A DNA stretch of 64,000 bases from Elusimicrobia bacterium GWB2_63_22 (lineage in GTDB: Bacteria > Elusimicrobiota > Elusimicrobia > Elusimicrobiales > UBA9959), in NCBI GenBank assembly GCA_001799735.1, contig MGUA01000001.1, forward strand, positions 30,554 to 94,553, given 5' to 3'. The first letter of the stretch is position 1. The number at the start of each line of letters is the position of its first letter. Made by a program: the position numbers and the translations under genes. Positions 2,876 through 47,287 of the stretch are shown in pieces. The notes below the pieces were generated by a model. The model was not told the origin of the DNA. It did not search any database and saw nothing but the letters and a program-made list of their open reading frames with translations.

Positions 2876-3904
2876 TCAGCGCGCCTGGGAAAAAACCCGC
2901 AGCGCGGCTTCCTTCATTCCCCTCAGCGTGAACCCGGCCAGCGTCTCCCCCGGCTTTCGCTCCAATTCCGCCGTGCCCACGCGGTCATAATGGCCCCCGT
3001 CAGCGTTCTGCTTCCCCACCGTAAGCGGGGCCAGGGAAGTCTGCAGGAAAGCCGAGAAGGCGCTCCGCTCCTCGTTCTTTTTGATCCTGATCTTAAGTCC
3101 GCGGTAGCGGGCATAAACCGAGGCTTTAAGACCAGCGCCGCGGATCGCCGCCGAGCCGCGGGCCTCGATGAGCTGCCCGCTCAATTTGATGCCGTCATTC
3201 GGCCCCAGGAACGGGTTAAAAGCGGAGAGGTCCTGCTCCGCAAGGCTTAGCTCCACATCCGCGTCCGGGGACTCCGCGAAGAGCCTGGCCCTGACCTTCA
3301 GGCGGAATTTTCCGGACTCCGCCAGCAGGCCGTCCGCACTGACTTGCGCCTCTTTGCCGCGAAGCCGCGCCGAACTGCCCGCGGGCCCCGCGGCCGCGCT
3401 GATCCCGGATACCTTCAGGCTGCCCGTCCGCCCCGAATGTTCCCGGAGATAAATAAAGGAACCCTGTTTTACGTCTATGCCCTCGATTTCAAGATCGGTC
3501 TGGCGCGCCGCGCCGGCTGCGCCGGCGGGAGGGATGCCAAGCTCTCCCTGTGTTACCGTGACCACGGGCCGGGTTATCTCTATCCGGCCGGCGCGGAGGC
3601 GGCTTTTGAAAAGCGGGAGAAGGGAGAATGGGACGTAGACGCGTTCCGCATCGAAACTGATCACGGTAGCGCCCGGCTCGCCCCGGCTGAAGCTGACGCC
3701 GCGGCTGCTCAGGGCAAGCGGCAGCAGCGAGATCTGGACGCGGTCGAGAGAAAGCACGCAGGTCTTACAGCCGTCCTGCGCGGCCGAAATAAGCCGGCTC
3801 CGGACCAGCGCGGGAACGGCGATCTCCTTAAGGATCATGCCGGCCGCCAGAACAGCCAGCAAAACGAGGTAAAATCGTGCCCCCCGCAGTCTTCTGATTT
3901 TCAT
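2876..3904 (-). CDS. membrane-anchored periplasmic protein (AsmA/DUF748-like architecture)
   Basis: 342 aa with an N-terminal signal anchor (RFYLVLLAVLAAGMIL) and a beta-rich remainder. No diagnostic motif, so the family is uncertain. Confidence 0.5.
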   Translation of the reverse strand: MKIRRLRGARFYLVLLAVLAAGMILKEIAVPALVRSRLISAAQDGCKTCVLSLDRVQISLLPLALSSRGVSFSRGEPGATVISFDAERVYVPFSLLPLFKSRLRAGRIEITRPVVTVTQGELGIPPAGAAGAARQTDLEIEGIDVKQGSFIYLREHSGRTGSLKVSGISAAAGPAGSSARLRGKEAQVSADGLLAESGKFRLKVRARLFAESPDADVELSLAEQDLSAFNPFLGPNDGIKLSGQLIEARGSAAIRGAGLKASVYARYRGLKIRIKKNEERSAFSAFLQTSLAPLTVGKQNADGGHYDRVGTAELERKPGETLAGFTLRGMKEAALRVFSQAR

Positions 3905-3989: not shown

Positions 3990-4307
3990 CTACCGCATCA
4001 GTTCTCTGCCCAGGTGCGCCCAGGCTCCCTTGAGGTCCATGGTCAACCGGTTCAGCTCTTCCACGCCGACCTTCTGCAGCATGGCGTAGCGCCCGGCGAC
4101 CTCGTCGACGATGCTGTAATACTCCCGCTCGTTAAGCGCCTTAACCTCTTCCACCTTCTCAAGAACTTCGCCTTTGAGCTTAAGCATCCAGCCGGAGACC
4201 TTTTCGCGGTTCGGCTCGTTCTTTTTGCCGTACAGGAAATAGGTTCCCAGCGCGGCCAGGGCGGCGAGCCCGAGGCCGGTTTGTATTGCGGTTTCCGTCT
4301 TAGTCAT
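3990..4307 (-). CDS. YtxH-like small membrane-anchored stress protein (paralog of 38448..38762)
   Basis: Start moved to the ATG at 4307 (MTKTETAIQTGLGLAALAALGTYFLYGKK..), which has an AAGGA SD. One TM followed by a helical tail. High identity to 38448..38762 (GWMLKLKGEVLEKVEEVKALNEREYYSIVDEVAGRYA vs GWMLKLKGEVLEKAEEIKDLNEAEYYKIVDEISGRYA). Confidence 0.65.
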   Translation of the reverse strand: MTKTETAIQTGLGLAALAALGTYFLYGKKNEPNREKVSGWMLKLKGEVLEKVEEVKALNEREYYSIVDEVAGRYAMLQKVGVEELNRLTMDLKGAWAHLGRELMR

Positions 4308-4340
4308 ATTGTGTCCTTGCCGCACTAGCGTCTAAATAAG

Positions 4341-4390: not shown

Positions 4391-5842
4391 CTACCTTGCC
4401 ACGGGAGGCGCCGTTAATTCTACGCGCCTGTTGGCCTTGGCGGCGTCGGTGTGCACCAGGTCGGGGAACTCTTCGTACTCGACCGGGCGCATCTCGCCGT
4501 AGCCTACCGTGGTGATCCGCTCAGGCGCGACGCCTTCGCTGATCAGGAATTCCGCTACCGCGGCCGCCCGCTTCTCGCTTAAGGTCTGGTTATACTTTTC
4601 GGTGCCGCTCGCGGAGGCGTAGCCCGCCACGCGGACGTCGCGCTTCGGGTTCTCCTTGATAAGCCGCGCGTTTTCGCGCAGCGCCTCCATGCCCTGGGGC
4701 CTGAGCTCCGCCGAGTCGAACGAGAAGTGCGAATCGTCAAGAACGACCAGCTTTACAACGATGGGCGCGGGGGCGGGCTTAGGGGCCGCTCCGACGAGCG
4801 CGACAGGCGCCGGCGGAGCCTCCACTATGGCCACCGCCACGATGGGCTGCCTTTTTTTGGGGCAGTTGAACTTGAAGGTGAAGCTCACCTTATGAGAGGC
4901 CCCCAGGTCGCCCGAAGGCACCATGGCGTAGTCCAGGGCCACGGTGCGGGTCAGGGTATACCCCAGGCCCAGCGTCAGGCCGGTCAGGCCGCTCAGCTGG
5001 GGGTTGGGATAGTTGACCTGGTAACCGGCGCGGAGGGCAAGAACGTTCTTCTTGTTCTCCGTATTGCCGACCAGGTATTCCGCTCCCACCTGCAGCCGGT
5101 CCATAGCGTCGTTCTGGAGCTCTCCGGAAGCCGCCAGGATGAGGTGCCTGTCCACGGTCCAGGCCGCGCCCAGGCGCAGGCCCGAGACCAGCGAACTGCC
5201 GCCTACCTTGCTGCCAAGGTTGATATTGGAGTAGGTCAGGCCCAGGTCCAGGGCCCTGAACACGTTCCACAGGACGCCCAGGTCGGCGGCATAGCTGTAG
5301 TAGTTCTTTCCCGGGAACTGCGCCTGGTTCACCTTCAGGGCGACGCCGCCGGCGAAGAAGGGCAGTAATTTCTTACCCCAGCCTACGCTGCCGGAAAAGT
5401 TCCTCGGATTGTAATCAGAGGTCTCCAGCCCGGCGTTATCCCTGCCGTCGAAAGTGCCGTAGTCGACGTAGCCGAAGGAGGCGGCGACACCGCCCAGGCT
5501 GCCCCCGTTGCACTCCTTGCCGTTGCACTCTTTCTTGGTCTTTCCCAGGGGCATGCCGAAGACGGCTATCTCCTGGTTGAAGCTGCCGAGGCCGCTATTG
5601 TGGTGCAGCCCGAGCTCCGTGCATCTGATCCGGCTCAGCGCGGCCGGATTCCACAGCAGGGAAGCGGACCCCTGGTCGAGCGCCACTACCGCCGACCCCA
5701 TGGCCGTGGCCCTGGCCGTGCCGCCCGCCTGCTGCAGGGGCAGGGCCTGGGTGCCGGCGGAGTAATCGGTCTCGCCGGCCGAGGCTTGGCCGCAGAGAAG
5801 CGCGGCGCAGATAAACCCGGTTCCTATAGATAATATTTTCAT
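4391..5842 (-). CDS. PorV/PorQ-like beta-barrel fused to a C-terminal OmpA peptidoglycan-binding domain
   Basis: 483 aa with a signal peptide (..LLCGQASA/GETDY). The N-terminal part carries a PorV/PorQ-type signature (GGTARATAMGSAVVALDQGSASLLWNPAALSR), followed by a Pro/Ala linker (APPAPVALVGAAPKPAPAP). The C-terminal OmpA domain reads ..VRVAGYASASGTEKYNQTLSEKRAAAVAEFL..NRRVEL. It lies 28 nt downstream of the cargo gene and has a GGAGAA SD. Confidence 0.8.
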   Translation of the reverse strand: MKILSIGTGFICAALLCGQASAGETDYSAGTQALPLQQAGGTARATAMGSAVVALDQGSASLLWNPAALSRIRCTELGLHHNSGLGSFNQEIAVFGMPLGKTKKECNGKECNGGSLGGVAASFGYVDYGTFDGRDNAGLETSDYNPRNFSGSVGWGKKLLPFFAGGVALKVNQAQFPGKNYYSYAADLGVLWNVFRALDLGLTYSNINLGSKVGGSSLVSGLRLGAAWTVDRHLILAASGELQNDAMDRLQVGAEYLVGNTENKKNVLALRAGYQVNYPNPQLSGLTGLTLGLGYTLTRTVALDYAMVPSGDLGASHKVSFTFKFNCPKKRQPIVAVAIVEAPPAPVALVGAAPKPAPAPIVVKLVVLDDSHFSFDSAELRPQGMEALRENARLIKENPKRDVRVAGYASASGTEKYNQTLSEKRAAAVAEFLISEGVAPERITTVGYGEMRPVEYEEFPDLVHTDAAKANRRVELTAPPVAR

Positions 5843-5870
5843 AGAAGTTCTCCTAAATATGCCGCGCCGC

Positions 5871-8800
5871 TTAATGTCTTACCGCGAACTTCTTCACTTT
5901 TGAGGTGGTAGAATTCGAGCCGCCGTAGTCTTTCTCAAGACGGTAGAGGTAGACGCCCGGGGCCAGCCTGGCCGTATTCAGTACCGAGGTCTGGGCGCCA
6001 GCCGCCTTGGAGTCCTCCAGCTTGGCCACCAGGTCCCCCATCACGTTGTAGATCTTGATGGTGGCGATACCCGGCAGGGCCATGCAGTAGGCGAAAGTCC
6101 CCGTTGCCCCCTTAGCCGGCGACGGATAGAAGAAGTCTTCTCCGCAGGCGGGCACGGCCAGCACGTAGGAATAGGGCACCGTGCAGGTGCCGCTGCTGGT
6201 CACCAGGCTTATGAACACCGAGCCCGCCGTAAGAGACCCGACGAGGGGGTGCCTGGGCGAGACGGCCGTGACCACGGTGGACGCGAGGTTCACCGAATAA
6301 CTGGCCGCGTTGTCGACGCCGAAGACGACGTTGCTGGACATGACCACGCCGAAGAAGCCGGTACCGGTAATGGTAACCGAGGTGCCGCCGGCCGAGTCGC
6401 CGGAGGCGGGGCTGATGCCGGAAATGGTGCAGGAAGCCACCACTACGGGCGCCACCGGGGCGCCGAACACCAGTACCGGGGCGATCTTCGTAACGAAGCC
6501 GTCGGTAGCGTTCTCGGTCCCGGTGCCGTTGAGCAGTTCGGTCCCGGCGGAACCGTCCATTACCGAGCCGTCGGTAGCGGGGAAGAGGTTGGAGGGCGTG
6601 ATGCCCGCCACATAGATGTTATGGAGCGAGTCTATAATGATGCCGTTAGCGCTCTGCTTGCCTGCCGTACCGGGAGAACCTCCCAGGTAGGAGAAGAACG
6701 GCCGGGTCAGCCCGTCGGAATCTATAGCCGCCACGAAGGCAGCCTGGTCCGAAGAGGTGTTGGTCTGTACGGCGCCCGTAATGTTCCTGCTTACGCAGGG
6801 CAGCGAGCAGTCCACCAGGGTATCGTTCCCGGCGACCTCCCAGTTGGCCGACCGGGTCCAACCGGCGATGTAAGCGTCGTCGAGCGAGTCCAGCGCCATG
6901 GAGCGGGCGCGTTCCGCGCCGCCGGCGGCACCCACGTGCGTCGCGTACACCATCTCCAGCGAGCGGTTAATATCGGCTTCCGCGGGATTGAGCCTGAGCA
7001 CGAACGCGTCGTCCGCGCCCTGCAGGGCCTGCTGGTAGGGGACGGCCCTGGAGCCGGGCCCGACTGTCGGCAGGAGCAAATAGGCGGTAGAGGGGAAGTC
7101 CGTAGGGGACACCGTCCAGCCCGCCACAAAGACGTTATAAGGCACCGCGCCGGCATTATTGAGGATAACGGCCGTCGCTTCGTCCTCGGTAGCGCCGTTA
7201 ATATAGGTAGCGTAGAGCAGGGAGGTGCCGTCCGCGGCGACCTGGGCTACGAAACCGTCGGCCCAGACCCCGGCCGTTCTCAGTTCGGAGAAATGCCCGA
7301 GGAAAGCGCCGGTATTGGCCGGCCAGGTGTCCGAGGTGGTTTTACCCACGACCCAGGCCTGGCCCGCGGCGTCAACCGTAATGGCGTTGGCGTTGGTGAC
7401 CGTGTCCGAGGTGCCCATGAGCATGGAATAGACCACGGACGCGCCCGCGGGAGCGATCTTTACCACGAAGGCGGCCTCGGAGGCGGCGCCCATTGTATTA
7501 TAAGGAGCGGCGATCCCGGCGCTGATGGGGAAGTTGGTCGCGAACGTCGTTCCGGTTATATAAGCCGCGCCCAGCGAATCGACCGCGATACCGTTGGCGG
7601 TGTTGGTAAGGATGCCGCTGATGCCGCCCCAACAGGTAGAGTAGACCAGGGCGGGAATATCCGACGGCTGCTCCAGCTGCGCCACAAAGGCCAGCGAGCC
7701 GGTGTTGACGTCGCAGGCCTGCAGCGCGGGCCCGGCTACCGGGAAAGCGGTGCCAAGGCCGGCCGACTGGGTCACGCCGGTGATAAAGACATTGGGCGTG
7801 CTCGCGCTGGAGTTGTCCAGCGCTATGCCATTGGCCTGTTCGGCAAGCGCGCCGCCCAGCCAGGCCAGCCACATGATGCTGGCCCCGTCCGCACTGAGCT
7901 TGGCTACGAAAACGTCCCTGGCGCCGTTATCGGGGCCGGGGGCTGAGACCGCGTTGGTGGAGGCGGGAAAGCCGCCGGCGCCGGTCATGGCCGAGTTAGC
8001 CCAGCCGGTCACATAAGCCTGCTGCGTCGCGTCCACCGCCACGCTCATGATCTCGTCGTCGACGCTGCCGCCGAGGTACGTGCCGTACACGATAGCGGGG
8101 TCGATCACCAGCTGTTTGCTCTTTATATAATTGCCTACTTCGAAGCGGACGTTGTTATTAGACGCCAGCACGAAGTGACCTTTCACAGAAACCCGCTTGC
8201 TGCCCAGGGTCTGGTACAGCTTGGGGGCCTGGTAGGTCAGCTCCCCGCCCTCTACATTGAGGACCAGGTTGCCTTTGGGGTCAAGCCGCATGCCTTTAGC
8301 GCCTTTGAAACCCATGAGGATGCGCCCGGGGTTAGCTCCCGGCGCCACGATAAAGTCATATTCCACGTTCCCCTTGTCGAAACGGTAGACCATGTCGATG
8401 CCGGGGTAGACCTGGGAGAAATTCACCCGGGAATACTGCCGCACGCCGACCTGCCATTTCGCCTTGTCGCTGCCAAGGAAATAGCTGGTGCGGCCGGGCA
8501 GGATGCCCTGGCCCTCGACCGAGGGGCTGGGATTGGCGCCCTTCAGTTTCATGCGCAGCACAAGGGGCGCTTTGGTCTTATCGGCCTTGGCCCTGCGCAG
8601 CACGGTGACGGCTTCCGAAGCGGTCAGGTAGAGGTTGTAGCCGGCGGCGCGGGTAAAGAACTTCACCGAAGCGTCGGTCTGGCCCTTGTTGGCCTCGAAG
8701 TACATGGGGACCTTCAGGGAACCGGGGGCGACCCGGGCCTGGGCGCCTTGCACAGCTTTAGCACCGGTCGGTTGTACCGCGGCCGCATCCTTATTAGAGG

Positions 8801-8909
8801 ACGCAGGTGTCATATTGAACCCGGAGAAGGCGGGGCTTGAAGGCCCGACAACCAGGGTCACTGCTACGAGCAGCCTGCTCATTTGAAGGAACCAATTTAT
8901 CAATCTCAT
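5871..8909 (-). CDS. secreted SBBP beta-propeller-repeat / IPT-TIG protein with T9SS-type C-terminal sorting domain
   Basis: 1012 aa with a signal peptide. Repeated SBBP-like motifs (..AYVTGWANS.., ..AYITGTTFATNFP.., ..NIYVAGITPSNLFP..). IPT/TIG-like segment (CTISGISPASGDSAGGTSVTITGTGF). C-terminal domain FFYPSPAKG..IKIYNVMGDLVAKL..LAPGVYLYRLE..KKFAVRH. Confidence 0.85.
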   Translation of the reverse strand: MRLINWFLQMSRLLVAVTLVVGPSSPAFSGFNMTPASSNKDAAAVQPTGAKAVQGAQARVAPGSLKVPMYFEANKGQTDASVKFFTRAAGYNLYLTASEAVTVLRRAKADKTKAPLVLRMKLKGANPSPSVEGQGILPGRTSYFLGSDKAKWQVGVRQYSRVNFSQVYPGIDMVYRFDKGNVEYDFIVAPGANPGRILMGFKGAKGMRLDPKGNLVLNVEGGELTYQAPKLYQTLGSKRVSVKGHFVLASNNNVRFEVGNYIKSKQLVIDPAIVYGTYLGGSVDDEIMSVAVDATQQAYVTGWANSAMTGAGGFPASTNAVSAPGPDNGARDVFVAKLSADGASIMWLAWLGGALAEQANGIALDNSSASTPNVFITGVTQSAGLGTAFPVAGPALQACDVNTGSLAFVAQLEQPSDIPALVYSTCWGGISGILTNTANGIAVDSLGAAYITGTTFATNFPISAGIAAPYNTMGAASEAAFVVKIAPAGASVVYSMLMGTSDTVTNANAITVDAAGQAWVVGKTTSDTWPANTGAFLGHFSELRTAGVWADGFVAQVAADGTSLLYATYINGATEDEATAVILNNAGAVPYNVFVAGWTVSPTDFPSTAYLLLPTVGPGSRAVPYQQALQGADDAFVLRLNPAEADINRSLEMVYATHVGAAGGAERARSMALDSLDDAYIAGWTRSANWEVAGNDTLVDCSLPCVSRNITGAVQTNTSSDQAAFVAAIDSDGLTRPFFSYLGGSPGTAGKQSANGIIIDSLHNIYVAGITPSNLFPATDGSVMDGSAGTELLNGTGTENATDGFVTKIAPVLVFGAPVAPVVVASCTISGISPASGDSAGGTSVTITGTGFFGVVMSSNVVFGVDNAASYSVNLASTVVTAVSPRHPLVGSLTAGSVFISLVTSSGTCTVPYSYVLAVPACGEDFFYPSPAKGATGTFAYCMALPGIATIKIYNVMGDLVAKLEDSKAAGAQTSVLNTARLAPGVYLYRLEKDYGGSNSTTSKVKKFAVRH

Positions 8910-8953
8910 TTTATTGTCCTCTTTTACCGGTCCGCCACTATTGGCTTGTTTTA

Positions 8954-9019
8954 AGTATAGCCCTTCGCTTGTTCGCTATCTATTCGGAGTTCTGCCCGAA
9001 GCTCTCAGTAGTAATACGG
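8954..9019 (-). promoter_or_regulatory. conserved 66-nt promoter/operator cassette, copy a
   Basis: Gene-strand sequence: CCGTATTACTACTGAGAGCTTCGGGCAGAACTCCGAATAGATAGCGAACAAGCGAAGGGCTATACT. TAGATA, 17 nt, then TATACT. The -10 lies 45 nt upstream of the ATG at 8909. Confidence 0.7.
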
Positions 9020-9076
9020 TGGCAGCGGGGCGGGGCGAACTACGTACTGCCGTTTTTCACGACGGGGAAACGTCCG

Positions 9077-10444
9077 TCACTTCACGCTCATGGTAAAAAG
9101 CACGCGCATGTTGGACTTGGCCGCGGCCGAGTTTATCTTGCCGGGATTAGACTCATAAGTTTCGGGGCGCCTCTCGCCGTAGCCTACGGCGGTGATCCTT
9201 TCCGGCGCGATGCCTTCCGCGATCAGGAACCTGGAAACCGCTATCGCCCTTCTCTCGCTTAACTGCTGGTTATACTCTTCGGTGCCCTGCATCGAGGTAA
9301 AGCCTGCGACGCGCACCGTGGCCTTCGGATTGTCCTTGAGCACCTGGATATTTTTCCTGAGCGCCCGCATCCCGCCCGGCTTAAGCTCCGACTTGTCGAA
9401 GTCGAAATGTGAATCCTTGAGGACGAGTTCCCTGACCACCGGCGCAGGCGCCTGTGCGGCATCCTTGGCCTTTTCCGGGCAATTAAACTTAACGGTCAGG
9501 CTGAGGCGGTGGGAGGAGCCCAGCTCGCCGGCGGATACCAGGGCGTAGTCCAGGGCCATGGAGCGGCTAAAGGTATAGCCCAGACCCATGCTCAACCCGT
9601 CCATGCCGTCCAGCTGGGGATTGGGGAAGTTAACCTGGTAGCCGCCCCGGAGGGCCAGGATACCGGCTTTCTTTTCGATATCCCCGACCAGGTATTCGGC
9701 GCCCAGTTGGACGCGGTCCATGTCGCCGTTCTGCAGCTCCCCTGAAGCCGCCAGGAGCAGCCGCTTGTCCAGGGTCCAGGCCGCGCCCAGGCGCAGGCCC
9801 GAAGCCAGTCCGCTGCCGCCTATCTTGCTGCCTAAATTAACGTTGGAATAGGTAAGGCCCAGGTCCAGGTTAGGGAACAAGGCATACAATACGCCCAGGT
9901 CCGTGGTAAAAGCGTTGTAGCTCTTGAAGGCGAACCGCGACTGATTGCCTTTGAGCACTATACCGCCGGAAAAGCCGGGCAGCAATTCAATACCCCAGCC
10001 CAGGCTGCCGGAAAAATCCCCGGCCTGGTAGTCGCCGGTCGGGACTTCGTTGGCGTCCATGCCGCGGAAACTGCCATAGCTGACGTAGCCAAGAGAGGCT
10101 GCGATACCGCCCAAGGCCCCCCCTTTGCACTCGTCTTTAACTTCTCCCAGGGGCAGGCCGAAGATGACGGTCTCCTGTATAGTCTCGCCAAGGCCGGCAT
10201 TGTGATGAAGGCCGACTTCAGTGCAGCCAAGCCGGCTCAGGCCGGCCGGGTTCCAGAGCAGGGAAGCCGAACCCTGGGGCACCGCCACTACGGCCGAGCC
10301 CATGGCCATGGCCCTGGCCGTTCCCCCCGCCTGCTGCAGGGGCAAAGCTTTGGTGCCGGCCGCGTAATCGGTTTCCACGGCCGCCGCCGGCCCGCAGAGC
10401 AGGGCGGCGGAGACTAAACCTATGCCAATTGATAATATTTTCAT
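9077..10444 (-). CDS. PorV/PorQ-like beta-barrel fused to a C-terminal OmpA domain (paralog of 4391..5842)
   Basis: 455 aa with a signal peptide (..LLCGPAAA/VETDY). PorV-type signature GGTARAMAMGSAVVAVPQGSASLLWNPAGLSR. OmpA domain (..VRVAGFTSMQGTEEYNQQLSERRAIAVSRFL..SNMRVLF). It lies 19 nt downstream of the cargo gene and has a GGGAGAA SD. Confidence 0.8.
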   Translation of the reverse strand: MKILSIGIGLVSAALLCGPAAAVETDYAAGTKALPLQQAGGTARAMAMGSAVVAVPQGSASLLWNPAGLSRLGCTEVGLHHNAGLGETIQETVIFGLPLGEVKDECKGGALGGIAASLGYVSYGSFRGMDANEVPTGDYQAGDFSGSLGWGIELLPGFSGGIVLKGNQSRFAFKSYNAFTTDLGVLYALFPNLDLGLTYSNVNLGSKIGGSGLASGLRLGAAWTLDKRLLLAASGELQNGDMDRVQLGAEYLVGDIEKKAGILALRGGYQVNFPNPQLDGMDGLSMGLGYTFSRSMALDYALVSAGELGSSHRLSLTVKFNCPEKAKDAAQAPAPVVRELVLKDSHFDFDKSELKPGGMRALRKNIQVLKDNPKATVRVAGFTSMQGTEEYNQQLSERRAIAVSRFLIAEGIAPERITAVGYGERRPETYESNPGKINSAAAKSNMRVLFTMSVK

Positions 10445-10463
10445 TTAAATTCTCCCGTCGCTA

Positions 10464-12338
10464 TTAATGCTGCACCACGAACTTCTTAACGTTCGAAACA
10501 TTGGAGCCGCCGTTGTCATAGTTCCGCTCCAGGAGGTAGAGGTAGACTCCGGGCGCGAGCCTGCCGGTATTGAGCGGGGAGTGCTGGCTGCCCGCGATCT
10601 TGTACTCTTCCACTTTGGCCACCAGGTCGCCGATCACGTTATAGACCCGGATCTTGACCCTGCCGGCCGAGGCCATGCAGTACCTGAAGTTGCCGACGGC
10701 CCCTCTGGCCGGAGAAGGAAAGAAGTAGCCCGTCCCGCACAGGTCTTCCCCGGCGGCGAACGAGACCGGGGCGAACTTCGTGACAAAGGCGGTATTTGTG
10801 CCCGTGCCGCGGGTCTGCTGGAACCCGCCCGCCACCAGCGGGAAAGTCCCGGCGAGCGAGCCGGTATAGCCGGTGACATAAATATTCTTAAGGCTGTCCA
10901 GGGCGAGCCCCTGCCCTTTAGTCGGGCCGGTGCCGCCCAGCCAGGTAGAGAAAGCCAGGGGGCCGCCAGTATTGCTCAACACCGTCACGAACGCTTCCGG
11001 CGACCCGATGAAGGTGCTCTGCCCGGCTGCCGGGTTGGAGCCTACGCTGGGGAAGTCCCCGGAGGTAGTATGGCCGGCCACATAGGCGTTGAAAGAGCTG
11101 TCCACCGCGATCCCGGTCGCCCGGTCGTCGGTATTGCCGCCCAGGTAGGTAGCGTACACGCCGTCGCTGTGCCCGCCGCCGTTGCCCATGCGCAGCTTCA
11201 TCACGAAGGCGTCGGGACCGGTAGACATGGTAGTCCGCCCGCCGCCCAGGCCGGGAACGGTAGCGAAGACCGTAGAATTGTCCGGGAAGTCGGCGGAAAA
11301 GGTGTAACCCGTGAGATACACGTCGTTGAGGCTGTCCACCGCTATGGAGTTGCCCTGGTCGTCGTTGGCGCCGCCGATATAAGTCTTGTAGTCAAAGCTG
11401 GACCCGTCGGCCAGCAGCCTGGCCGCGAAAGCGTCGCCTTCGCCGCTGCCGCCGCCCCAGGTAGGCTTAAAAGCCCCCGCGATAGCGGCGTCGGCTAAAC
11501 CGTCCCCGGTGTTGCCGGTAACATAGGCCCTGCCCGAGCCGTCAACGGCTATTCCCCGCCCGTTGGCGAAGCCGGTGCAGCCTAAATAAGTTCCATACAC
11601 CTGCGCGCCGCCCGAGGTGAACTTCATGACGAAAGCCTGGGACGACACGCTGCGCGTGCCCGCGCAGGGAGAAGCGTCCGCAGTGGTAGGGAAAGTAGTA
11701 ATTAAAGCGTTATGAGGCGTATTATCTATAACGGACCCGGCGGTAGCCGTGCCCGTAACGTAAAGGTTCTCGCCCGAGTCTATGGCGATCCCGTTGCCGA
11801 CATCGTCCCCGTCAGCGCCGAACGTAACCCTGAAAGTGGTGGATTGGCCGTCGGCCGCGAAGCCCACAACGAAAGCGTTCAGGCCGGCCAGGACTCCGAC
11901 CGCGCCGGTCATCGGGGCAGAGGCCGGAATGTTCGCGCCGCCGCTGACCGAGCCGGTTATATAGGCCCTGCCAGAAGGGCCGTCCACGGCTATCCCGAGC
12001 CCGGTCTCCTCGGTAGCGCCGCCCAGGTAGGCAGACCAAACTATCGCGGTCCCGGCCGGGTTTATCTTGGTCACGAAGATGTCGTAACCGGCGTTCTTGG
12101 CCGCCTGTATGGGGCCTCCCACCGCGGACGGGAAATCAGGAGAATTTGTGGTCCCGGTCACGTAGGCGTTCTTATTGTCGTCTACGGCGATCGCAAAAGC
12201 CTGGTCCTCTGTAGCGCCGGCACCGCCCAGGAAGCTGGAGTAGGCGATACTCACCGCATGGGCCGGGCCGGTCAGGCCGGCTGTCAGGGTCAGCGCCGCT
12301 ATGGAGCGGCTCAGGAAAATTAACGGGGCAGATCTCAT
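10464..12338 (-). CDS. secreted SBBP beta-propeller-repeat protein with T9SS-type C-terminal sorting domain
   Basis: 624 aa with a signal peptide (..LTGPAHA/VSIAY). Many SBBP motifs (..NAYVTGTTNSPDFP.., ..DVYLTGYTFSADFP.., ..NAYVAGHTTSGDFP..). C-terminal domain YFFPSPARG..VKIRVYNVIGDLVAKV..LAPGVYLYLLE..KKFVVQH. Confidence 0.85.
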   Translation of the reverse strand: MRSAPLIFLSRSIAALTLTAGLTGPAHAVSIAYSSFLGGAGATEDQAFAIAVDDNKNAYVTGTTNSPDFPSAVGGPIQAAKNAGYDIFVTKINPAGTAIVWSAYLGGATEETGLGIAVDGPSGRAYITGSVSGGANIPASAPMTGAVGVLAGLNAFVVGFAADGQSTTFRVTFGADGDDVGNGIAIDSGENLYVTGTATAGSVIDNTPHNALITTFPTTADASPCAGTRSVSSQAFVMKFTSGGAQVYGTYLGCTGFANGRGIAVDGSGRAYVTGNTGDGLADAAIAGAFKPTWGGGSGEGDAFAARLLADGSSFDYKTYIGGANDDQGNSIAVDSLNDVYLTGYTFSADFPDNSTVFATVPGLGGGRTTMSTGPDAFVMKLRMGNGGGHSDGVYATYLGGNTDDRATGIAVDSSFNAYVAGHTTSGDFPSVGSNPAAGQSTFIGSPEAFVTVLSNTGGPLAFSTWLGGTGPTKGQGLALDSLKNIYVTGYTGSLAGTFPLVAGGFQQTRGTGTNTAFVTKFAPVSFAAGEDLCGTGYFFPSPARGAVGNFRYCMASAGRVKIRVYNVIGDLVAKVEEYKIAGSQHSPLNTGRLAPGVYLYLLERNYDNGGSNVSNVKKFVVQH

Positions 12339-12380
12339 TTTAGTTACCTCTTTATTGTTCGGCCTGGTTGGCGTGATTTA

Positions 12381-12447
12381 AGTATAGCCGCGACGCATGT
12401 ACGCTATCTATTAGGAATTCTGCCCGTCCCTCTCGGTAGTATTACGG
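12381..12447 (-). promoter_or_regulatory. conserved promoter/operator cassette, copy b
   Basis: Gene-strand sequence: CCGTAATACTACCGAGAGGGACGGGCAGAATTCCTAATAGATAGCGTACATGCGTCGCGGCTATACT. The -10 lies 43 nt upstream of the ATG at 12338. Confidence 0.7.
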
Positions 12448-12482
12448 AAAGCCAGTCGTTAACAGTCTTCTGTTCCCGTGGG

Positions 12483-14702
12483 TTAGACGCCGCTTAGCGA
12501 ACGCCCGATCTCGACCCAGAGCTTCACATAGTTGGGCGCTCCGGGGGTCGCCGTATTAACGGTAGTGCACATTAAAGTAATGGCCGCTCCTAAGCAAGCG
12601 GCGGACGCGGGAGGCGTCCAGGTCCCCGCCGCGCCGTTAAGCAGCAGCGTGTCGGGAGCGGCGGCGGCAGGGGTGGTGTCGCCAAAACTGATCCCGCCTA
12701 CCGTCCAGGCTGAAGCGACAAAGACCACCAGCTGCCCTTGCCCCACCGCGCCCGAACTGCAGCCGGTGATGGTAGTGACTATGGCGGTGCCGGAGAAGGT
12801 CAGCCCCACGACTCCCGACCCGTCGGCCGCGAAAGAGGTTTCGTTGGTGAGGACCACGGACTGGGACGCGTTAGCATAACCTTTTGCGGTAACAGCGGAG
12901 GTAAAGGTATTCAGCCCGGTAAAGGTCTGGTCGGCCGCCTTCAGGACATCCCCCGTATTCGCCTCTATATTCCCGTTCAATTTCTGGATAGCCTGCAGAA
13001 TCGAATCCGTCGCCGCCACTACCCCGGCGCCCGACACATAGCCGGTAAGCACCTTCGCTATTACAGGCGCGTTCGTAAGGGTGGTCGCGTTGCCTACCGA
13101 AGTAACGTCTCCGGTAAGGTTGGCGTTGGTGGTTACGGTGCCCGCATTGCCGCTGACGCTGCCGACGATGGCGCTGGAGAAGGTCTTTATCCCGCCGATG
13201 GTCTGGTCGCCTATTGTATAGACGCCGTTGGTAACTGTCCCGGCGTTGCCGCTGATGGCAGTCTGGTCGCCGGTGTTGGTGCCGGACAGATTAGCGACCG
13301 CGCCGTTGAACAGCATCGCATTGGTGATGGCGCCGTTGGCGATAGAGGTAGCGTTGCCTACGCTTGTCACCACGCCGGTAAGGTTGGCGTTGGTGGTTAC
13401 GGTGCCCGCATTGCCGCTGACGCTGCCGACTATGGGGCTCGAGAACGTTTTTATCCCGCCGATGGTCTGGTCGCCTATTGTATAGACGCCGTTGGTAACT
13501 GTCCCGGCGTTGCCGCTGATGGTAGTCTGGTCGCCGGTGTTGGTACCGGACAGATTAGCGACCGCCCCGTTGAACAGCATCGCATTGGTAATGGCGCCGT
13601 TGGCTATAGAGGTAGCGTTGCCTACGCTTGTCACCACGCCGGTAAGGTTGGCGTTGGTGGTTACGGTCGCAGCATTGCCGGTTATATTCACCTGGTCGCC
13701 GGTGTTGGTGCCGGACAGATTAGCGACCGCGCCGTTGAACAGCATCGCATTGGTAATGGCGCCGTTGGCGATAGAGGTAGCGTTGCCCACGCTTGTCACC
13801 ACGCCGGTAAGGTCGGCGTTAGTAGTCACGGTGCCCGCGTTGCCGCTGACGCTGCCGACGATGGCGCTGGAGAAGGTCTTTATCCCGCCTATGGTCTGGT
13901 CGCCCACGGTGTAGACGCCGTTGGTGACCGTCCCGGCATTGCCGCTTACTGCGGTCTGGTCGCCGGTGTTGGTGCCGGCCAGGTTCCCGGCGAAGATATT
14001 TCCGCTGAAGGTCGCCCCGGCCAGATTGGCCTTCAGGTTCAGCGCGGCCTGCTGCAGCGTGGACACCGGCTTATCGGCGTCCGAGGTGTTGTTCACGCTG
14101 CCGAGATTCAGCTGGCCCGCGGTAATACCGGTCAGCAGGGAGCCGTCGCCGCTCGCCGACAGCTTGCCGTTGAAAATGTTCCAGTCTACGGAGGTAAGAT
14201 AGCCATCCGAAGCCGCGCCAGCCGCCGGCTTACTGGTGATCGAGGCCCAAGCGGCGCCCTGCGCCCAGGCGGCGGTGCCGCTGTTCACGGAGTAAGCCGC
14301 TGTGGCGCTATTGAGAGAGTATAAGGAGTAAGCCGAAGAAACCACCCGGTAGCGGGGCAGCATTTCGCTGTCGGCCCCGACCGTCACCCCCAGCCAATAG
14401 GCGTTCGAGAAGGGTATCCCGAACGGAGTGACGAGTCCCAGCATGACGCTGTAAATACCGTCACTGTCCGGAGTAACGTTCTGGGTTTCAGACCAAAGGG
14501 ACGCGCCGCCCGAGGCGGCCGCATAGAACTTGAACACCATCGGGACGGAACCGGTGATCGCGGTGCCGGCCGGGTCGGTAAGCTTTCCCTGGAAATTTAT
14601 CAGTTCCGGCACAGCCGCCAGCGCCGGCGTTGCCCCGCCAGCTAAAAGCAGCAGCACGGCCAGCGCCGCGCCTGAAGATATTGTTTTTATATTGCTTTTC
14701 AT
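12483..14702 (-). CDS. secreted tail-fibre-like / adhesin-like repeat protein
   Basis: 739 aa with a signal peptide (..GGATPALA/AVPE). N-terminal ELINFQGKLTDPAGTAITG.. head, as in many fibre-like proteins. Central near-identical A/B repeats (see repeat feature). No T9SS-type CTD. Last gene of the PorV operon. Confidence 0.7.
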   Translation of the reverse strand: MKSNIKTISSGAALAVLLLLAGGATPALAAVPELINFQGKLTDPAGTAITGSVPMVFKFYAAASGGASLWSETQNVTPDSDGIYSVMLGLVTPFGIPFSNAYWLGVTVGADSEMLPRYRVVSSAYSLYSLNSATAAYSVNSGTAAWAQGAAWASITSKPAAGAASDGYLTSVDWNIFNGKLSASGDGSLLTGITAGQLNLGSVNNTSDADKPVSTLQQAALNLKANLAGATFSGNIFAGNLAGTNTGDQTAVSGNAGTVTNGVYTVGDQTIGGIKTFSSAIVGSVSGNAGTVTTNADLTGVVTSVGNATSIANGAITNAMLFNGAVANLSGTNTGDQVNITGNAATVTTNANLTGVVTSVGNATSIANGAITNAMLFNGAVANLSGTNTGDQTTISGNAGTVTNGVYTIGDQTIGGIKTFSSPIVGSVSGNAGTVTTNANLTGVVTSVGNATSIANGAITNAMLFNGAVANLSGTNTGDQTAISGNAGTVTNGVYTIGDQTIGGIKTFSSAIVGSVSGNAGTVTTNANLTGDVTSVGNATTLTNAPVIAKVLTGYVSGAGVVAATDSILQAIQKLNGNIEANTGDVLKAADQTFTGLNTFTSAVTAKGYANASQSVVLTNETSFAADGSGVVGLTFSGTAIVTTITGCSSGAVGQGQLVVFVASAWTVGGISFGDTTPAAAAPDTLLLNGAAGTWTPPASAACLGAAITLMCTTVNTATPGAPNYVKLWVEIGRSLSGV
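13075..13985 (-). repeat. in-frame tandem coding repeats (33-aa A unit + 55-aa B unit; 165/264-nt periodicity)
   Basis: The protein reads A-B-B-A-B-A-B(partial). A = SGNAGTVTNGVYT(V/I)GDQTIGGIKTFSS(A/P)IVGSV. B = SGNAGTVTTNA(D/N)LTG(V/D)VTSVGNATSIANGAITNAMLFNGAVANLSGTNTGDQT. Antisense-frame ORFs restart identically at 13228, 13492 and 13921, giving offsets of 264 and 429 (= 264+165) nt. Confidence 0.85.
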
Positions 14703-14730
14703 AAACTGCCTCCGCTTTATCCCGTTAAAA

Positions 14731-15678
14731 CTATTCCGCGCCCGGCACTCCGAACTCTATCCCCAGCGAGATCCGGTTAACGCTCCCCAGGTCGGTAAAA
14801 GAATTCCACGCGTAATCGATCCGGCAATCTTTCCATTTAAGGCCCAGCCCGGCGGTCAGGCCCGAAAGCGCGCCCAGTTCCTTGATTGTGTCGTCCTTAT
14901 AACCGGCCCGCGCCGCCACTACCACCGTTCCGAACGCGCGGGCGTACTCGGCCCCGGCGTGGATATTGATCTCCCTCTCCGTGTAGTTAAGATCGGACAC
15001 GACCAGCAGATTTTTATGCAGCTGCAGGGCGCCCCCCGCGCGAACCGTCACCGGCAGGGGATCCTCCTCCGCCACGTAACCGGCGTTCGTGCCGAGATTC
15101 TGCACCGACAGCCCCAGGCCCAGCCGGCGGCCCCACGGCTTAAAACCGCTGTAGAGAGCGCCGATGTCGGCGGCAAAGGAATGCGCGGACTCCTCTTCGA
15201 TGCGCGAGGAGATGAATTTAAGATTCGCGCCCAGCGCCAGCCTGTCAAAGCCGCGGGCATAGGAAACCAGCCCCATCACCTCCGACATGTCATAGCTATC
15301 CGAGAGGCGCAGGCCGGTGTTATCGGCTTTCTGGATATCTCCCGTGTTAAGAACGTTGAACGCCGCGCCTACGGTGCCGCCCTTCAGGGGCTGGGCGCAA
15401 GCCAGGTTGGAATAAGTAATATCCCCGAACCACTGGGCGTGCGTTACGGATAATTCCCGGCGGGCCAGGCTGGCCAGGCCGGCAGGATTCCAATAGACAG
15501 AGTTAACGTCGCCGGCCACGCCCGCAAAAGCCTCGCCCATAGCCGCCGGCCGCGCGCCTACGCCCAGCTGCAGGAACTGGAACGCGCTCGTGCCCAGCGC
15601 GCTCTGCGCCGCAGCCGGGCAGGGAGAGCACAGCAGCCCCAGGGCCGCCGCCGTCAGGATCTTTCTTGGAGTCGTCAT
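14731..15678 (-). CDS. PorV/PorQ family outer-membrane beta-barrel protein (stand-alone)
   Basis: Start moved to the ATG at 15678 (MTTPRKILTAAALGLLCSPCPAAA/QSALG), which overlaps the upstream stop as ATGA. Signature SAFQFLQLGVGARPAAMGEAFAGVAGDVNSVYWNPAGLASL. 315 aa. Confidence 0.8.
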   Translation of the reverse strand: MTTPRKILTAAALGLLCSPCPAAAQSALGTSAFQFLQLGVGARPAAMGEAFAGVAGDVNSVYWNPAGLASLARRELSVTHAQWFGDITYSNLACAQPLKGGTVGAAFNVLNTGDIQKADNTGLRLSDSYDMSEVMGLVSYARGFDRLALGANLKFISSRIEEESAHSFAADIGALYSGFKPWGRRLGLGLSVQNLGTNAGYVAEEDPLPVTVRAGGALQLHKNLLVVSDLNYTEREINIHAGAEYARAFGTVVVAARAGYKDDTIKELGALSGLTAGLGLKWKDCRIDYAWNSFTDLGSVNRISLGIEFGVPGAE

Positions 15679-16259
15679 CTTATCACCGCGAATTTGCCTT
15701 TCGCCTTGCTGCCGTCGGGCGAGGTCATGAAATAAAGGTAAACACCGCTCGCCAGTTTCTGCCCGTCGCCATTCGTCACGTTCCATTCGTAATAGTCGAC
15801 CGCGCTGTCGGTCTTGTGCAGCTCGGCCACCCGGCGGCCGGTTATCGCGAAAATTGTGATCCTGGTTTGCGCCGGCAGGTGCTTAAAGGTCATCCGGGCG
15901 GCCTGGAAGCCGCCCGGGCTGTTAGGCTTGAAGGGATTGGGGTAGACGTAGGCGTCGTTCAGATTGGGCGCCGAAAGCGACGGCGCCGCCGCGGGCAGCG
16001 TTGCGAAGGCTCCCGAAATAACATAGTTTGCGCTTTGCGCTCTGCCGGACGCGGCCTGCCCCAGCACCCCGGTCCGCACCTGGTAGCCCGGCGAAACCGT
16101 GCTGGCGCCCCCGTTTACCACCGCGGGCCTGGAAAGGCTGTACTGGGAACTTACCATCACGCCGGCGCCGACCAGCGAGCCGGTCAGCAGGACCACAGCC
16201 GCCGACAGCCGGCTGCCCCGCAGCAGCGGCCTGGTTTTAGGTTCGGAGATACCTGTCAT
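15675..16259 (-). CDS. small protein consisting of a signal anchor plus a T9SS-type C-terminal sorting domain
   Basis: 194 aa. N-terminal anchor (RLSAAVVLLTGSLVGAGVMV). C-terminal domain AYVYPNPFKPNSPGG..ITIFAITGRRVAEL..WNVTNGDGQKLASGVYLYFM..GKFAVIR. The ATG lies 6 nt after the TATACT of cassette c, so the mRNA is possibly leaderless. Confidence 0.7.
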   Translation of the reverse strand: MTGISEPKTRPLLRGSRLSAAVVLLTGSLVGAGVMVSSQYSLSRPAVVNGGASTVSPGYQVRTGVLGQAASGRAQSANYVISGAFATLPAAAPSLSAPNLNDAYVYPNPFKPNSPGGFQAARMTFKHLPAQTRITIFAITGRRVAELHKTDSAVDYYEWNVTNGDGQKLASGVYLYFMTSPDGSKAKGKFAVIR

Positions 16260-16265
16260 GGAACA

Positions 16266-16331
16266 AGTATAGCCCCTGCCAGAAACGGTATCTATTCGGA
16301 ATTATGCCCTGCGGGCTAGGTACTATTACGG
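16266..16331 (-). promoter_or_regulatory. conserved promoter/operator cassette, copy c
   Basis: Gene-strand sequence: CCGTAATAGTACCTAGCCCGCAGGGCATAATTCCGAATAGATACCGTTTCTGGCAGGGGCTATACT, followed by TGTTCC and then the ATG at 16259. Confidence 0.7.
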
Positions 16332-25984: not shown

Positions 25985-26037
25985 AAAAGCGGTGGCGGCG
26001 CAGAGACGCCGGGGGTGCTGCCCGGGGCCCGGCTCTG

Positions 26038-27090
26038 CTATGCCGGCGGAGCGTGCCTGACCGGGGTCGCCGGGCCCAGCAGCACGGCTATCCAGCGGGT
26101 GCTTTCGTGGTTCTCGCAGGCGAACTTCAGGGCCATGGTAAGCGGTATGCACAGGACCGCGCCGATCAGACCGAGCATACTCCCCCAGAAGATCAGCGAC
26201 AGGAAGACTGCCAGCGTGGACAGGGATAGCTTCATACCCATGAGCTTCGGCTCTACTACATTGCCAAGAATGAAGTTAACCGCCACATAGCCGGCGGCTA
26301 CCAGCGCGGCCCGGCCGGGCCCGAACTGCACAAGGGTAAGGCTGACGGCGGGGATGCCCGCTATGATAGACCCGACATGGGGGATGTAGAGGAGCAGGAA
26401 AGCCAGGAACCCCCAGAGAACGGGGGAACCTATGCCGAGGACGGCCAGCCAGACGCCTATCAGGACGCCCGCGGTAACGGCCAGGGCCGTCTTTACCAGC
26501 ATGTAGCGCTGAATATCGCCTACGAACCTGGTAAATTCCGGGAAAGCCTGCCGCGGATCGCCGAGTACGGCGCGCAGCTTGACCGGGAAGCTGGAGGCTT
26601 CCAGCAGGATGAACATCACGGACAGCAGGATCAGCACGAAGTTGGAAAGCGCCGCGACCACCCCACCCAGCATGCCAGCGAAAAGTTTCATTACCGTAGC
26701 CGGGTTCAAATATTCGAGCAGCATACCCTCGGTGACGGGGATGCCTTTGCCCGCCAGCAGGGCGGCCAGGGACGCGGCTTCCGCCTGCATACGCGCCTGG
26801 TAGGCCGGCATTGCGTCGCCAAACCCGCTCAGGGACGTGCCTACAAGCAGACCGACCAGCAGCAGAACGGCCATCATGGCCGCCACTACCAGCAGCACGG
26901 CGGCTATGGCAGGAACACGCTTGCGTTCCAGCCAGAGCACCAGCGGCGTGCCCAGCAGCGCCAGGAAAACGGAGACCAGCGACGACACCAGGGCCGACTG
27001 CGCCTGGTTGAGGCCCCAGATAACTATGACCAGCGCGGCCGCGACAAGCAGGAAGCGTGTTCCGCCGGGGAAATCATTCTTTTGGTTCAT
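26038..27090 (-). CDS. AI-2E family transporter (PerM/UPF0118)
   Basis: Start moved to the ATG at 27090, which has a GGAGG SD 8 nt upstream. 350 aa, polytopic. ..LLLYIPHVGSIIAGIPAVSLTLVQFG..FILGNVVEPKLMGMKLSLSTLAVFLSLIFWGSMLGLIGAVLCIPLT.. is typical of AI-2E transporters. Confidence 0.8.
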   Translation of the reverse strand: MNQKNDFPGGTRFLLVAAALVIVIWGLNQAQSALVSSLVSVFLALLGTPLVLWLERKRVPAIAAVLLVVAAMMAVLLLVGLLVGTSLSGFGDAMPAYQARMQAEAASLAALLAGKGIPVTEGMLLEYLNPATVMKLFAGMLGGVVAALSNFVLILLSVMFILLEASSFPVKLRAVLGDPRQAFPEFTRFVGDIQRYMLVKTALAVTAGVLIGVWLAVLGIGSPVLWGFLAFLLLYIPHVGSIIAGIPAVSLTLVQFGPGRAALVAAGYVAVNFILGNVVEPKLMGMKLSLSTLAVFLSLIFWGSMLGLIGAVLCIPLTMALKFACENHESTRWIAVLLGPATPVRHAPPA

Positions 27091-36605: not shown

Positions 36606-36634
36606 ACAGTTTTTGGAACTTACCCCCAAAGGTA

Positions 36635-40243: not shown

Positions 40244-40530
40244 TCTTAAATCCGCAAGTAAGCCTAGCCCGCTCCGTGCCTGTTAAGCGCCCGGATCTCG
40301 GACACCAACCGCATCTTTTCAGCCAGCATTCTCTCGGTATACCGCCCGTTCCTCTGCGTAACTGCCTTATACCGCGACACCAGCATTTCCGCATGCGGCT
40401 TTTTGATTATAAAACATTCTTTTGGTTCGGCCACCAAAGCCAGGACGGTAGCGTCTGGCCCCTTAACGGCCGCCGCCCCCCGCCCTGGCCCCTCTTAATC
40501 ATCAGCCCTGTTCTACTTCAAGAACCCGGG

Positions 40531-40809: not shown

Positions 40810-40832
40810 TCGCAGTTTTTTGCTCCCAAAGA

Positions 40833-41546: not shown

Positions 41547-41627
41547 GAGATATTTCCTTAATCCGTCCTTCTATTCAAGATACCGCCGGAATTTCCCCCG
41601 CCGGTTTGCCCTACACCCTTGTACAAA

Positions 41628-45390: not shown

Positions 45391-45411
45391 CTAACCTCTG
45401 AAGAGATAAAG

Positions 45412-45434: not shown

Positions 45435-45439
45435 AGCAA

Positions 45440-47256: not shown

Positions 47257-47287
47257 AATCGTTCCCCTATTTCAGAGTATACTAAAT

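Follow-up and report, generated by a model that had tools for sequence, protein, structure and literature searches.

How might a protein bearing a type IX secretion system (T9SS) sorting signal be held at the cell envelope of a bacterium that lies outside the phyla known for this system? The question is raised by a gene cluster on a 64,000-nt stretch of DNA (the window; G+C ~62%) from Elusimicrobia bacterium GWB2_63_22, a metagenome-assembled genome (MAG), in which proteins ending in a T9SS-type C-terminal domain (CTD) are encoded directly beside β-barrels of the PorV/PorQ family. T9SS research views CTD signals and the PorV, PorQ and PorP barrels as accessories of a translocon specific to the Bacteroidota or the wider FCB (Fibrobacterota-Chlorobiota-Bacteroidota) group; reviews report T9SS genes to be absent outside the FCB phyla (PMC11285876), and TXSScan detected no T9SS outside the Bacteroidetes (PMC4793230). 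In our reading, three modules under common regulation make up the region, which is a gene cluster conserved among Elusimicrobia; every module comprises a CTD protein and its cognate PorV/PorQ-family barrel, and we lean towards a model in which each barrel holds its upstream partner, via the CTD, at the outer membrane (OM).

Three modules with a common logic

The first-pass annotation of this DNA had proposed seven minus-strand open reading frames (ORFs) grouped into three units of one logic, and all seven were confirmed, together with their coordinates, intergenic gaps and overlap. In module (i), a 624-aa cargo (10464..12338) with a signal peptide, SBBP β-propeller repeats and a C-terminal sorting domain that we call CTD1 (DNA ~10467-10742) is followed after 19 nt (10464/10444) by a 455-aa fusion (9077..10444) of a PorV-like barrel (DNA 9476-10444) with an OmpA-like domain (DNA 9080-9439). 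Module (ii) repeats this plan with a 1012-aa cargo (5871..8909), which carries a signal peptide, DUF7948, SBBP repeats, IPT/TIG and CTD1 (DNA ~5874-6149), and, after a gap of 28 nt (5871/5842), a 483-aa fusion (4391..5842) in which a Pro/Ala-rich linker joins the PorV-like barrel (DNA 4859-5842) to the OmpA-like domain (DNA 4394-4750). Module (iii) opens with a 194-aa mini-protein (15675..16259), made up of an N-terminal hydrophobic helix, a low-confidence linker and a PorZ-like CTD (CTD2), and continues with a 315-aa stand-alone PorV/PorQ-family barrel (14731..15678; NF033709), whose start overlaps the stop of the mini-protein gene as ATGA (15675-15678, read directly in the sequence), and a 739-aa fibre-like repeat protein (12483..14702) with a signal peptide and without a CTD. 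The signal peptides of the cargo proteins were likewise read from the sequence.

Each of the three modules is preceded by a conserved block of ~75 nt (CCGTAATACTAC...GGGCAGAATTCCGAATAGATA...GGCTATACTTAAA) that contains the promoter-like element TAGATA-N17/18-TATACT on the minus strand, with a 17-nt spacer upstream of module (iii) (16266..16294) and module (ii) (8954..8982) and an 18-nt spacer upstream of module (i) (12381..12410). The window contains four copies of the motif, whereas shuffled sequence gives an expectation of 0.00; the fourth match (41650-41680, minus strand) has a 19-nt spacer. It is also present on the coding strand in 19 related loci, upstream of cargo genes and, where positions were compared, at ~45-130 nt (mostly 45-75 nt) from them. 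The −10 hexamer of the 194-aa gene ends just 6 nt before its ATG, which suggests either a possibly leaderless mRNA or a true start codon further downstream. At the level of sequence, the common block supports the proposal of three transcription units with one logic.

The barrels belong to the PorV/PorQ family

All three barrels score above the curated cut-off of 90 bits for the NCBIfam PorV/PorQ family model NF033709 (95.1 bits for 4391-5842, 100.8 for 9077-10444 and 188.5 for 14731-15678), and they have in common with PorV the N-terminal signature GxxARAxxMGxA...WNPAGL. Identity is 61% between the two fused barrels and ~31%, along the full length of the barrel, between either of them and the stand-alone one (E = 3e-24); the latter matches PorV (6h3i_F) by sequence at 6e-7. 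An AlphaFold2 (AF2) model of the 455-aa fusion, built from 64 sequences and with a mean predicted local distance difference test score (pLDDT) of 78.5, displays helical N-terminal segments (residues 43-71) and 14 strands (residues 75-320), from which a short linker of low confidence leads to an OmpA-like α/β domain. Its best matches in a Foldseek search of the Protein Data Bank (PDB) are the PorV chains of the Flavobacterium johnsoniae translocon complexes (8gl6_F, 2.5e-10; 6h3i_F, 1.6e-9), with FadL close to PorV at 1.3e-9, as expected within one superfamily, and the C-terminal domain is matched by Pal, OprF and PorE. The barrels are predicted from this model to be 14-stranded, FadL-like β-barrels with an N-terminal plug segment, of the PorV/PorQ family, in agreement with the first reading of the sequence. 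The family assignment itself is not new, since NCBI already annotates several homologues as 'PorV/PorQ family protein'; the 455-aa protein has a 100% identical counterpart among the proteins of the GWB2_63_22 MAG.

Orthology to PorV or PorQ was rejected for all three. The PorV (NF033710) and PorQ (NF033711) equivalog models have cut-offs of 250 and 220 bits, and the barrels, in the order given above, score 34.5, 26.9 and 82.5 bits with the former and 50.2, 51.1 and 122.2 bits with the latter, all under the cut-off; for the stand-alone barrel, PorQ scores above PorV among the equivalog models (122.2 vs 82.5 bits). Membership of the PorP/SprF family was rejected as well, there being no such family among the Pfam matches or the top 25 listed NCBIfam matches of the three barrels. 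A plain FadL transporter was rejected both on the NF033709 scores and on Toluene_X (PF03349), which scores 17.5 and 20.7 bits against a gathering cut-off of 29.7 and whose matches span only the N-terminal segments of the barrels. Nor does the locus resemble two-partner secretion (T5bSS), for the barrels match PorV/PorQ rather than Omp85/TpsB and the cargoes lack a TPS domain.

Sorting domains of the partner proteins

The CTD1 domain common to the 624-aa and 1012-aa cargoes is T9SS type A-like in sequence. With TIGR04183, the model of the T9SS type A sorting domain (cut-off 23 bits), the 1012-aa, 624-aa and 194-aa proteins score 29.0, 16.4 and 21.4 bits, and only the first lies above the cut-off. 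Across the family, 27 of 29 diverse CTD1 sequences match PF18962 at E <= 0.01 (best 2e-11), and 13 of the 29 give weak CHU_C matches. A phmmer search with CTD1 against 1.84 billion representative proteins returned only 622 relatives, and in the 150 matches listed the aligned region reaches to within a few residues of the C terminus. For the 624-aa cargo, SBBP is matched at 4e-43 and the CTD1 hidden Markov model (HMM) at 3e-50, and the isolated CTD scores 2e-5 with Por_Secre_tail; for the 1012-aa cargo, Pfam detects DUF7948 (4e-59), SBBP (6e-17), TIG (4e-7) and Por_Secre_tail (7e-6). The SBBP and IPT/TIG regions recognised in the first pass are thus borne out, with DUF7948 as an addition, and its T9SS-type sorting domains are supported at family level. 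Complete cargoes in related loci range from 349 to 1598 aa, and their passengers differ (SBBP; DUF7948-SBBP-TIG; Big_13; Ice_binding; an unassigned domain of ~270 aa), while the CTD stays; it is therefore the CTD, and not the passenger, that constitutes the constant partner of the barrel.

The mini-protein of module (iii) was described at the outset as little more than a signal anchor with a CTD, which holds: it consists essentially of a hydrophobic helix (residues 14-37) and CTD2 (residues ~100-194, DNA 15678-15962). CTD2 is matched by the NCBIfam model of the PorZ C terminus (9.7e-14) and, by sequence, by Porphyromonas gingivalis PorZ (PDB 5m11, 7.5e-10). It is also the CTD that was modelled: AF2 predicts a β-sandwich with pLDDT >90 over residues 100-194, for which Foldseek ranks PorZ first (1.5e-6, 36% identity), ahead of the CTDs of PorU, NucA and RemZ. 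Sequence and predicted fold together identify CTD2 as a PorZ-like, Ig-like sorting domain. Scores with the type B sorting models are below the cut-offs for this protein (17.1 bits with TIGR04131, cut-off 35 bits; 21.7 bits with PF13585 CHU_C, cut-off 27 bits). Its 93 homologues are nearly all of 160-204 aa, and those with a named source organism are without exception from Elusimicrobia; a PorU- or PorZ-sized protein does not occur among them, which is weak negative evidence on the T9SS core.

The fibre protein (12483-14702) gave no Pfam, NCBIfam or PDB sequence match. It contains 264-nt tandem repeats of 95% identity at 13111-13832, and repeats this similar suggest length variation; counterparts of 352-1195 aa come after the PorQ-like barrel in four related loci (L005, L089, L172 and L173), whereas an assembly gap cuts through the one in L007/L008. 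In both of the new loci sampled from the CTD2 side, the PorQ-like barrel lies directly downstream and is followed by a fibre-like gene, and the pairing of CTD2 with a PorQ-like barrel held in every distinct locus examined. The fibre is accordingly the conserved third gene of a mini-protein/PorQ-like/fibre triad. One of these two new loci (L172 8001-13727), in the same genome as L005, encodes a second CTD2 mini-protein followed by a 635-aa PorQ-like barrel with TSP_3 repeats and OmpA and by a 1073-aa fibre-like protein; this barrel indicates that the PorQ-like branch also exists in OmpA-fused form.

The pairing is conserved and the partners co-diverge

Six Elusimicrobia genomic contexts, reached via homologues (one of them, L009, from a full-length fusion profile scan of genome contigs), were compared with the window. 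Their gene order runs from the CTD2 mini-protein to the PorQ-like barrel and the long fibre, and then to one or two pairs of a CTD1 cargo and a barrel. A barrel-only profile scan of JGI metagenomes added 79 loci, in which the barrel, OmpA-like domain, CTD1 and CTD2 were located with local HMMs. Among the 64 distinct barrels with at least 200 nt of upstream sequence, in which a CTD1 gene was sought within 400 nt, 59 have a CTD1-ending gene directly upstream, at a gap of −56 to +59 nt (median ~12 nt). The five exceptions are one barrel behind another cargo-barrel pair (L147), one behind OmpA-type genes (L138), one with the CTD1 gene downstream (L150) and two with no CTD1 gene within the available sequence (L124, L149). 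In seven more distant loci the CTD1 gene likewise lies downstream of the barrel, mostly within ~100 nt.

The pairwise distances of CTD1 and barrel are strongly correlated over 55 non-redundant pairs (Mantel r = 0.89, with 0 of 999 permutations above 0.28). In six loci with two modules, the CTD follows the orthology group of its own barrel in 11 of 12 modules, and the divergence between paralogous modules of one genome amounts to 31-41% for the CTD and 29-39% for the barrel. Modules therefore duplicate and diverge as units, and such co-divergence is the pattern that cognate recognition predicts. The frequency of the pairing, taken with the co-divergence, led us to reject chance adjacency. None of the outcomes that the first-pass annotation had named as refuting it was encountered: the barrels score as PorV/PorQ, the CTDs are T9SS-like, and the adjacency of cargo and barrel is conserved in relatives.

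The OmpA-like domain is an optional addition

Both fusions match OmpA (PF00691) well above the gathering cut-off of 27.2 bits, at 79.7 and 79.6 bits (E = 2.1e-22 for 4391..5842 and 2.2e-22 for 9077..10444), and the closest PDB sequences to the domain are Pal, OprF and the C-terminal domain of PorE. The suggestion of an OmpA-fused barrel thus stands for the two fusions of the window; as an obligate feature of these barrels it does not, for of 62 related barrels that are complete, 40 possess the domain. In L091 (6001-7002), the orthologue nearest to the 455-aa fusion has a barrel 93% identical to it and ends in ...KFNCPEKAGSGRNVK and a stop, without the OmpA-like domain. The absence is precise and in-frame, and the downstream intergenic/promoter block is intact, so that the difference between L091 and window 9077-10444 looks like a recent gain or loss of the domain. 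On the strength of this orthologue we rejected the notion that the module cannot do without the OmpA-like domain.

Other C-terminal fusions are seen in PorV-like barrels that are more distant, namely TPR, TSP_3-OmpA or LysM (a faint Pfam match), the last two being peptidoglycan-binding. It thus seems that barrels of this clade can in general take up a C-terminal, periplasmic extension as a module. In unclassified bacteria (L157 2362-3648, L158 6004-7278, L162, L166, L170 10001-11332 and L171 488-1813), TPR or a faint LysM replaces OmpA, and the TPR- or LysM-fused barrels have as neighbours proteins with a CTD or Ice_binding domain, an ECF sigma factor and a FlgD_ig protein of anti-sigma-like kind. 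The fused PorV-like barrel of L170 adjoins GH8 and GH9 enzymes of large size.

Genomic neighbourhood

Two conserved neighbours, whose membership of the cluster is uncertain, lie downstream of module (ii) on the minus strand. One (3990..4325) encodes a protein of 105-111 aa with one N-terminal hydrophobic helix and no family match; the other (2876..3904) encodes a 342-aa DUF748 protein (PF05359 at 4e-11, under the gathering score). The 105-aa membrane protein and the DUF748 protein are often next downstream in related contexts; in L001-L003, L005, L006 and L089 the 105-aa gene comes after the barrel and the DUF748 gene is present as well.

Several Elusimicrobia repeatedly show, at no more than a few kb from the cluster, a TamA-like Omp85 protein with TamB and, apart from these, an Omp85-like protein of 516 aa (window 21861-26152, minus strand; L007 11698-16292; L090 1-3395 and 11490-13040; L009 11526-13076). 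They are accompanied by genes for PLA1, Lnb_N, a BON-domain protein, BrkB and a MetA-pathway barrel, and the surroundings look like an OM-biogenesis neighbourhood. Further along the window, a 1316-aa fusion of a CheB methylesterase, a CheR methyltransferase, PAS domains and a histidine kinase is encoded at 32679-36629 (minus strand), and a similar gene of 1186 aa lies near the CTD2 module of L173. A tmRNA gene is found at 50318-50669 (minus strand; tag peptide ANSNELAWAHA). The stretch at ~40000-50000, with a G+C of 0.47-0.57 vs ~0.62 elsewhere, encodes a sigma-54 activator, a histidine kinase, an SBP_bac_5 protein and a radical-SAM protein, the gene of the last adjoining the tmRNA gene, and may be an island acquired at the tmRNA locus.

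Discussion

We propose the following mechanism, which we consider somewhat probable, for how the modules might operate. The upstream protein would be exported by Sec, and its C-terminal, Ig-like sorting domain would then dock on the 14-stranded barrel encoded directly downstream. The barrel would retain the protein at the OM, most probably at the cell surface, with the CTD uncleaved, and, where present, the periplasmic OmpA-like domain would tie the complex and the OM to peptidoglycan, a single polypeptide thereby doing the job of the PorP-PorE pair. In module (iii), the CTD protein would serve as a short adaptor, probably linking the fibre to the PorQ-like barrel, and the fibre is probably displayed. 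From the domain identities, the predicted folds, the tight operon-like adjacency, the co-diversification and the common promoter-like element we infer that the CTD binds the barrel and is retained, that the partner protein is exposed at the surface and that the OmpA-like domain binds peptidoglycan. There is precedent for such anchoring in the T9SS: PorQ anchors PorZ and PorV anchors PorU by means of CTDs that stay uncleaved (PMC10947112), type B CTD cargo binds cognate PorP/SprF-like barrels that are often encoded adjacent to it (PMC12618676, PMC9143113), and PorP is tied to peptidoglycan via the OmpA_C domain of PorE (PMC9143113, PMC7192894).

A close parallel is provided by the T9SS attachment complex of P. 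gingivalis, in which the uncleaved CTD of a surface protein serves to fix it to a barrel of the PorV/PorQ family (PorQ-PorZ, PorV-PorU; PMC10947112). By structural alignment the CTD of the mini-protein is 36% identical to that of PorZ, and its partner barrel is closer to PorQ. However, the Elusimicrobia partner has only 194 aa and lacks the two β-propellers of PorZ, the two genes are adjacent and overlapping, neither a PorU sortase nor an A-LPS pathway is evident here, and the barrels score under the PorQ and PorV equivalog cut-offs. The PorP/SprF shuttles (SprF-SprB; PorP-PG1035) resemble the modules in that a dedicated barrel is encoded beside its own CTD cargo, which stays bound for anchorage (PMC12618676, PMC9143113, PMC7192894), and PorP-PorE in the use of an OmpA_C-like domain as the peptidoglycan tether of a barrel (PMC9143113, PMC7192894). 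Here, by contrast, the barrel is of the PorV/PorQ and not of the PorP_SprF family, its partner has a type A-like CTD (PF18962) where theirs is of type B, the OmpA-like domain is covalently fused instead of residing in the separate lipoprotein PorE, and the host lies outside the FCB group.

PorV of F. johnsoniae (PDB 6h3i, 8gl6) is the best structural match and shares the NCBIfam family and the N-terminal signature. Yet PorV is a single shared gene per genome, ~400 aa in length with long loops, and docks on SprA, whereas the Elusimicrobia loci hold several paralogues with a barrel of ~280 aa, paired 1:1 with cargo and often extended by a periplasmic C-terminal domain. OmpA/OprF-type proteins offer the same overall design, a barrel at the N terminus joined by a Pro/Ala-rich hinge to an OmpA-like domain in the periplasm, with a probable role in tethering the OM to peptidoglycan; the barrel here is predicted to be 14-stranded and FadL/PorV-like, as opposed to the 8-stranded OmpA barrel, and is coupled genetically to a CTD protein. 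FadL/TodX and the Treponema UPF0164 proteins share the fold of the 14-stranded plugged-barrel superfamily and an NPA-containing N-terminal hatch motif, but the Toluene_X scores of the barrels described here fall under the family cut-off, and we know of no CTD partner or OmpA fusion for FadL.

Seen against these systems, the novelty claimed in the first-pass annotation was overstated, because dedicated shuttles and peptidoglycan tethering have already been published. It treated PorV as the single shared shuttle of the T9SS, a view made outdated by the cognate PorP/SprF-like barrels of type B cargo (PMC12618676, PMC9143113), and it took cargo-specific pairing and tethering to be undescribed, although PorQ-PorZ and PorV-PorU anchoring (PMC10947112) and the PorE OmpA_C tether of PorP (PMC9143113, PMC7192894) are both on record. 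What we did not find in the searchable literature is the covalent fusion of a PorV-family barrel with an OmpA-like domain, a strict 1:1 pairing with type A-like CTD cargo, or the triad of PorZ-CTD mini-protein, PorQ-like barrel and fibre, nor any such fusion, pairing or triad in a phylum outside the FCB group. A literature search returned nothing relevant linking Elusimicrobia or Elusimicrobiota to PorV, T9SS or type IX secretion.

Several observations weigh against the anchoring model. As the barrels lie far under the PorV and PorQ equivalog cut-offs, function is not transferable to them by orthology. The barrel domain measures only ~280 aa, compared with 402 aa in F. johnsoniae PorV, and the long extracellular loops used by PorV are on that account probably missing. 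Neither the window nor the gene lists of related loci yielded a translocon. Genetic linkage alone would yield the same co-divergence as cognate recognition. The OmpA-like domain is missing from 22 of the 62 complete related barrels, which makes tethering optional. In OmpA/Pal domains a conserved Asp (GHTD) and Arg (RRA) contact the peptide stem; in this family the Asp of the canonical 'GHTD' is replaced by Ser (GFTS/GYTS), nearly invariantly across 64 aligned members, while the SERRA Arg is retained, so that peptidoglycan binding is plausible and not assured.

How the partner proteins would reach the surface is where other readings diverge. The barrels could be specialised PorV/PorQ paralogues that collect cognate cargo for a complete but divergent T9SS encoded elsewhere in the genome, with a SprA/Sov-like translocon, a PorKLMN-like motor and possibly PorU; the modules would then belong to a T9SS of the ordinary kind, in a phylum new to it and with shuttles specific to their cargo. 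Both CTDs and barrels do come from bona fide T9SS-type families, and in published models PorV, PorQ and PorP/SprF collect substrates at Sov/SprA (PMC10947112, PMC12618676). The first pass had noted that the window holds no porK/L/M/N/sov-like gene, and a screen of the larger ORFs of all 64 kb with Pfam and NCBIfam agrees in finding no T9SS core family, a result that says little given that the genes of a T9SS usually lie dispersed over the chromosome (PMC4793230). Nor did a core family figure in the Pfam gene lists, computed beforehand, of those related Elusimicrobia loci that were inspected, and the 795 kb of flanks hold no ORF of at least 2000 aa (SprA has ~2400 aa), these negatives covering the window, the flanks and the related loci and hence less than the whole genome. 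The CTD2 homologues, moreover, are only mini-proteins of ~190 aa and none is PorU/PorZ-sized, and the literature places T9SS genes only in the FCB phyla (PMC11285876, PMC4793230). Taken together, a hidden T9SS strikes us as rather unlikely.

The same lack of a visible translocon, the strict 1:1 operon pairing from module to module, the recurrence of TamA/TamB and the 516-aa Omp85-like gene beside the cluster, and a host outside the phyla known for T9SS would fit a barrel that itself moves its partner across the OM without a T9SS core, aided by BAM or by the neighbouring TamA/TamB and Omp85-like proteins. We regard autonomous secretion or display of this kind, the two-partner-like unit suggested in the first pass, as improbable: a plugged 14-stranded FadL/PorV-type barrel is without precedent as a protein-conducting channel, these barrels are not Omp85/TpsB-like, their cargo lacks a TPS domain, and β-propeller cargo of 350-1600 aa would need to cross unfolded. 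Very improbable, in our estimation, is a SusC/SusD-like uptake logic, in which FadL-like channels would admit small hydrophobic molecules, the CTD proteins would capture ligands at the channel mouth and display would be secondary. The near-equal structural match to FadL and TodX, the weak Toluene_X matches and a neighbourhood rich in envelope and lipid genes (PLA1, MetA-pathway barrel, DUF748) point that way, but the barrels exceed the PorV/PorQ cut-off while reaching just 17-21 bits of the 29.7 required for Toluene_X, the conserved partner element is a T9SS-type CTD rather than any one passenger domain, and a CTD-only mini-protein with a fibre, as in module (iii), would make no sense for uptake.

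The CTD protein and its PorV/PorQ-type barrel might form a self-sufficient system of surface anchoring, and possibly delivery, that operates without SprA and PorKLMN in Elusimicrobia and other non-FCB bacteria. Such a system could represent an independent or ancestral source of the T9SS attachment complex (PorV-PorU, PorQ-PorZ), with the barrel doubling as an OM-cell wall tether via OmpA, LysM or TPR fusions. This wider proposal is speculative and we hold it to be doubtful.

The window presents, in Elusimicrobia, a compact and strongly conserved version of the sorting and anchoring half of the T9SS, with one barrel for one cargo and the barrel often putatively hard-wired to the cell wall. It also provides a ready data set for the study of CTD-shuttle specificity, comprising 55 co-diverging pairs, within-genome paralogues and orthologues with or without the OmpA-like domain. 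Should the genomes have a T9SS, the known phylogenetic range of the system would widen. Should they be without SprA and PorKLMN, CTD-barrel recognition would be older or more autonomous than the secretion motor, and what makes up the minimal CTD-recognition unit would become directly testable with two-gene constructs.

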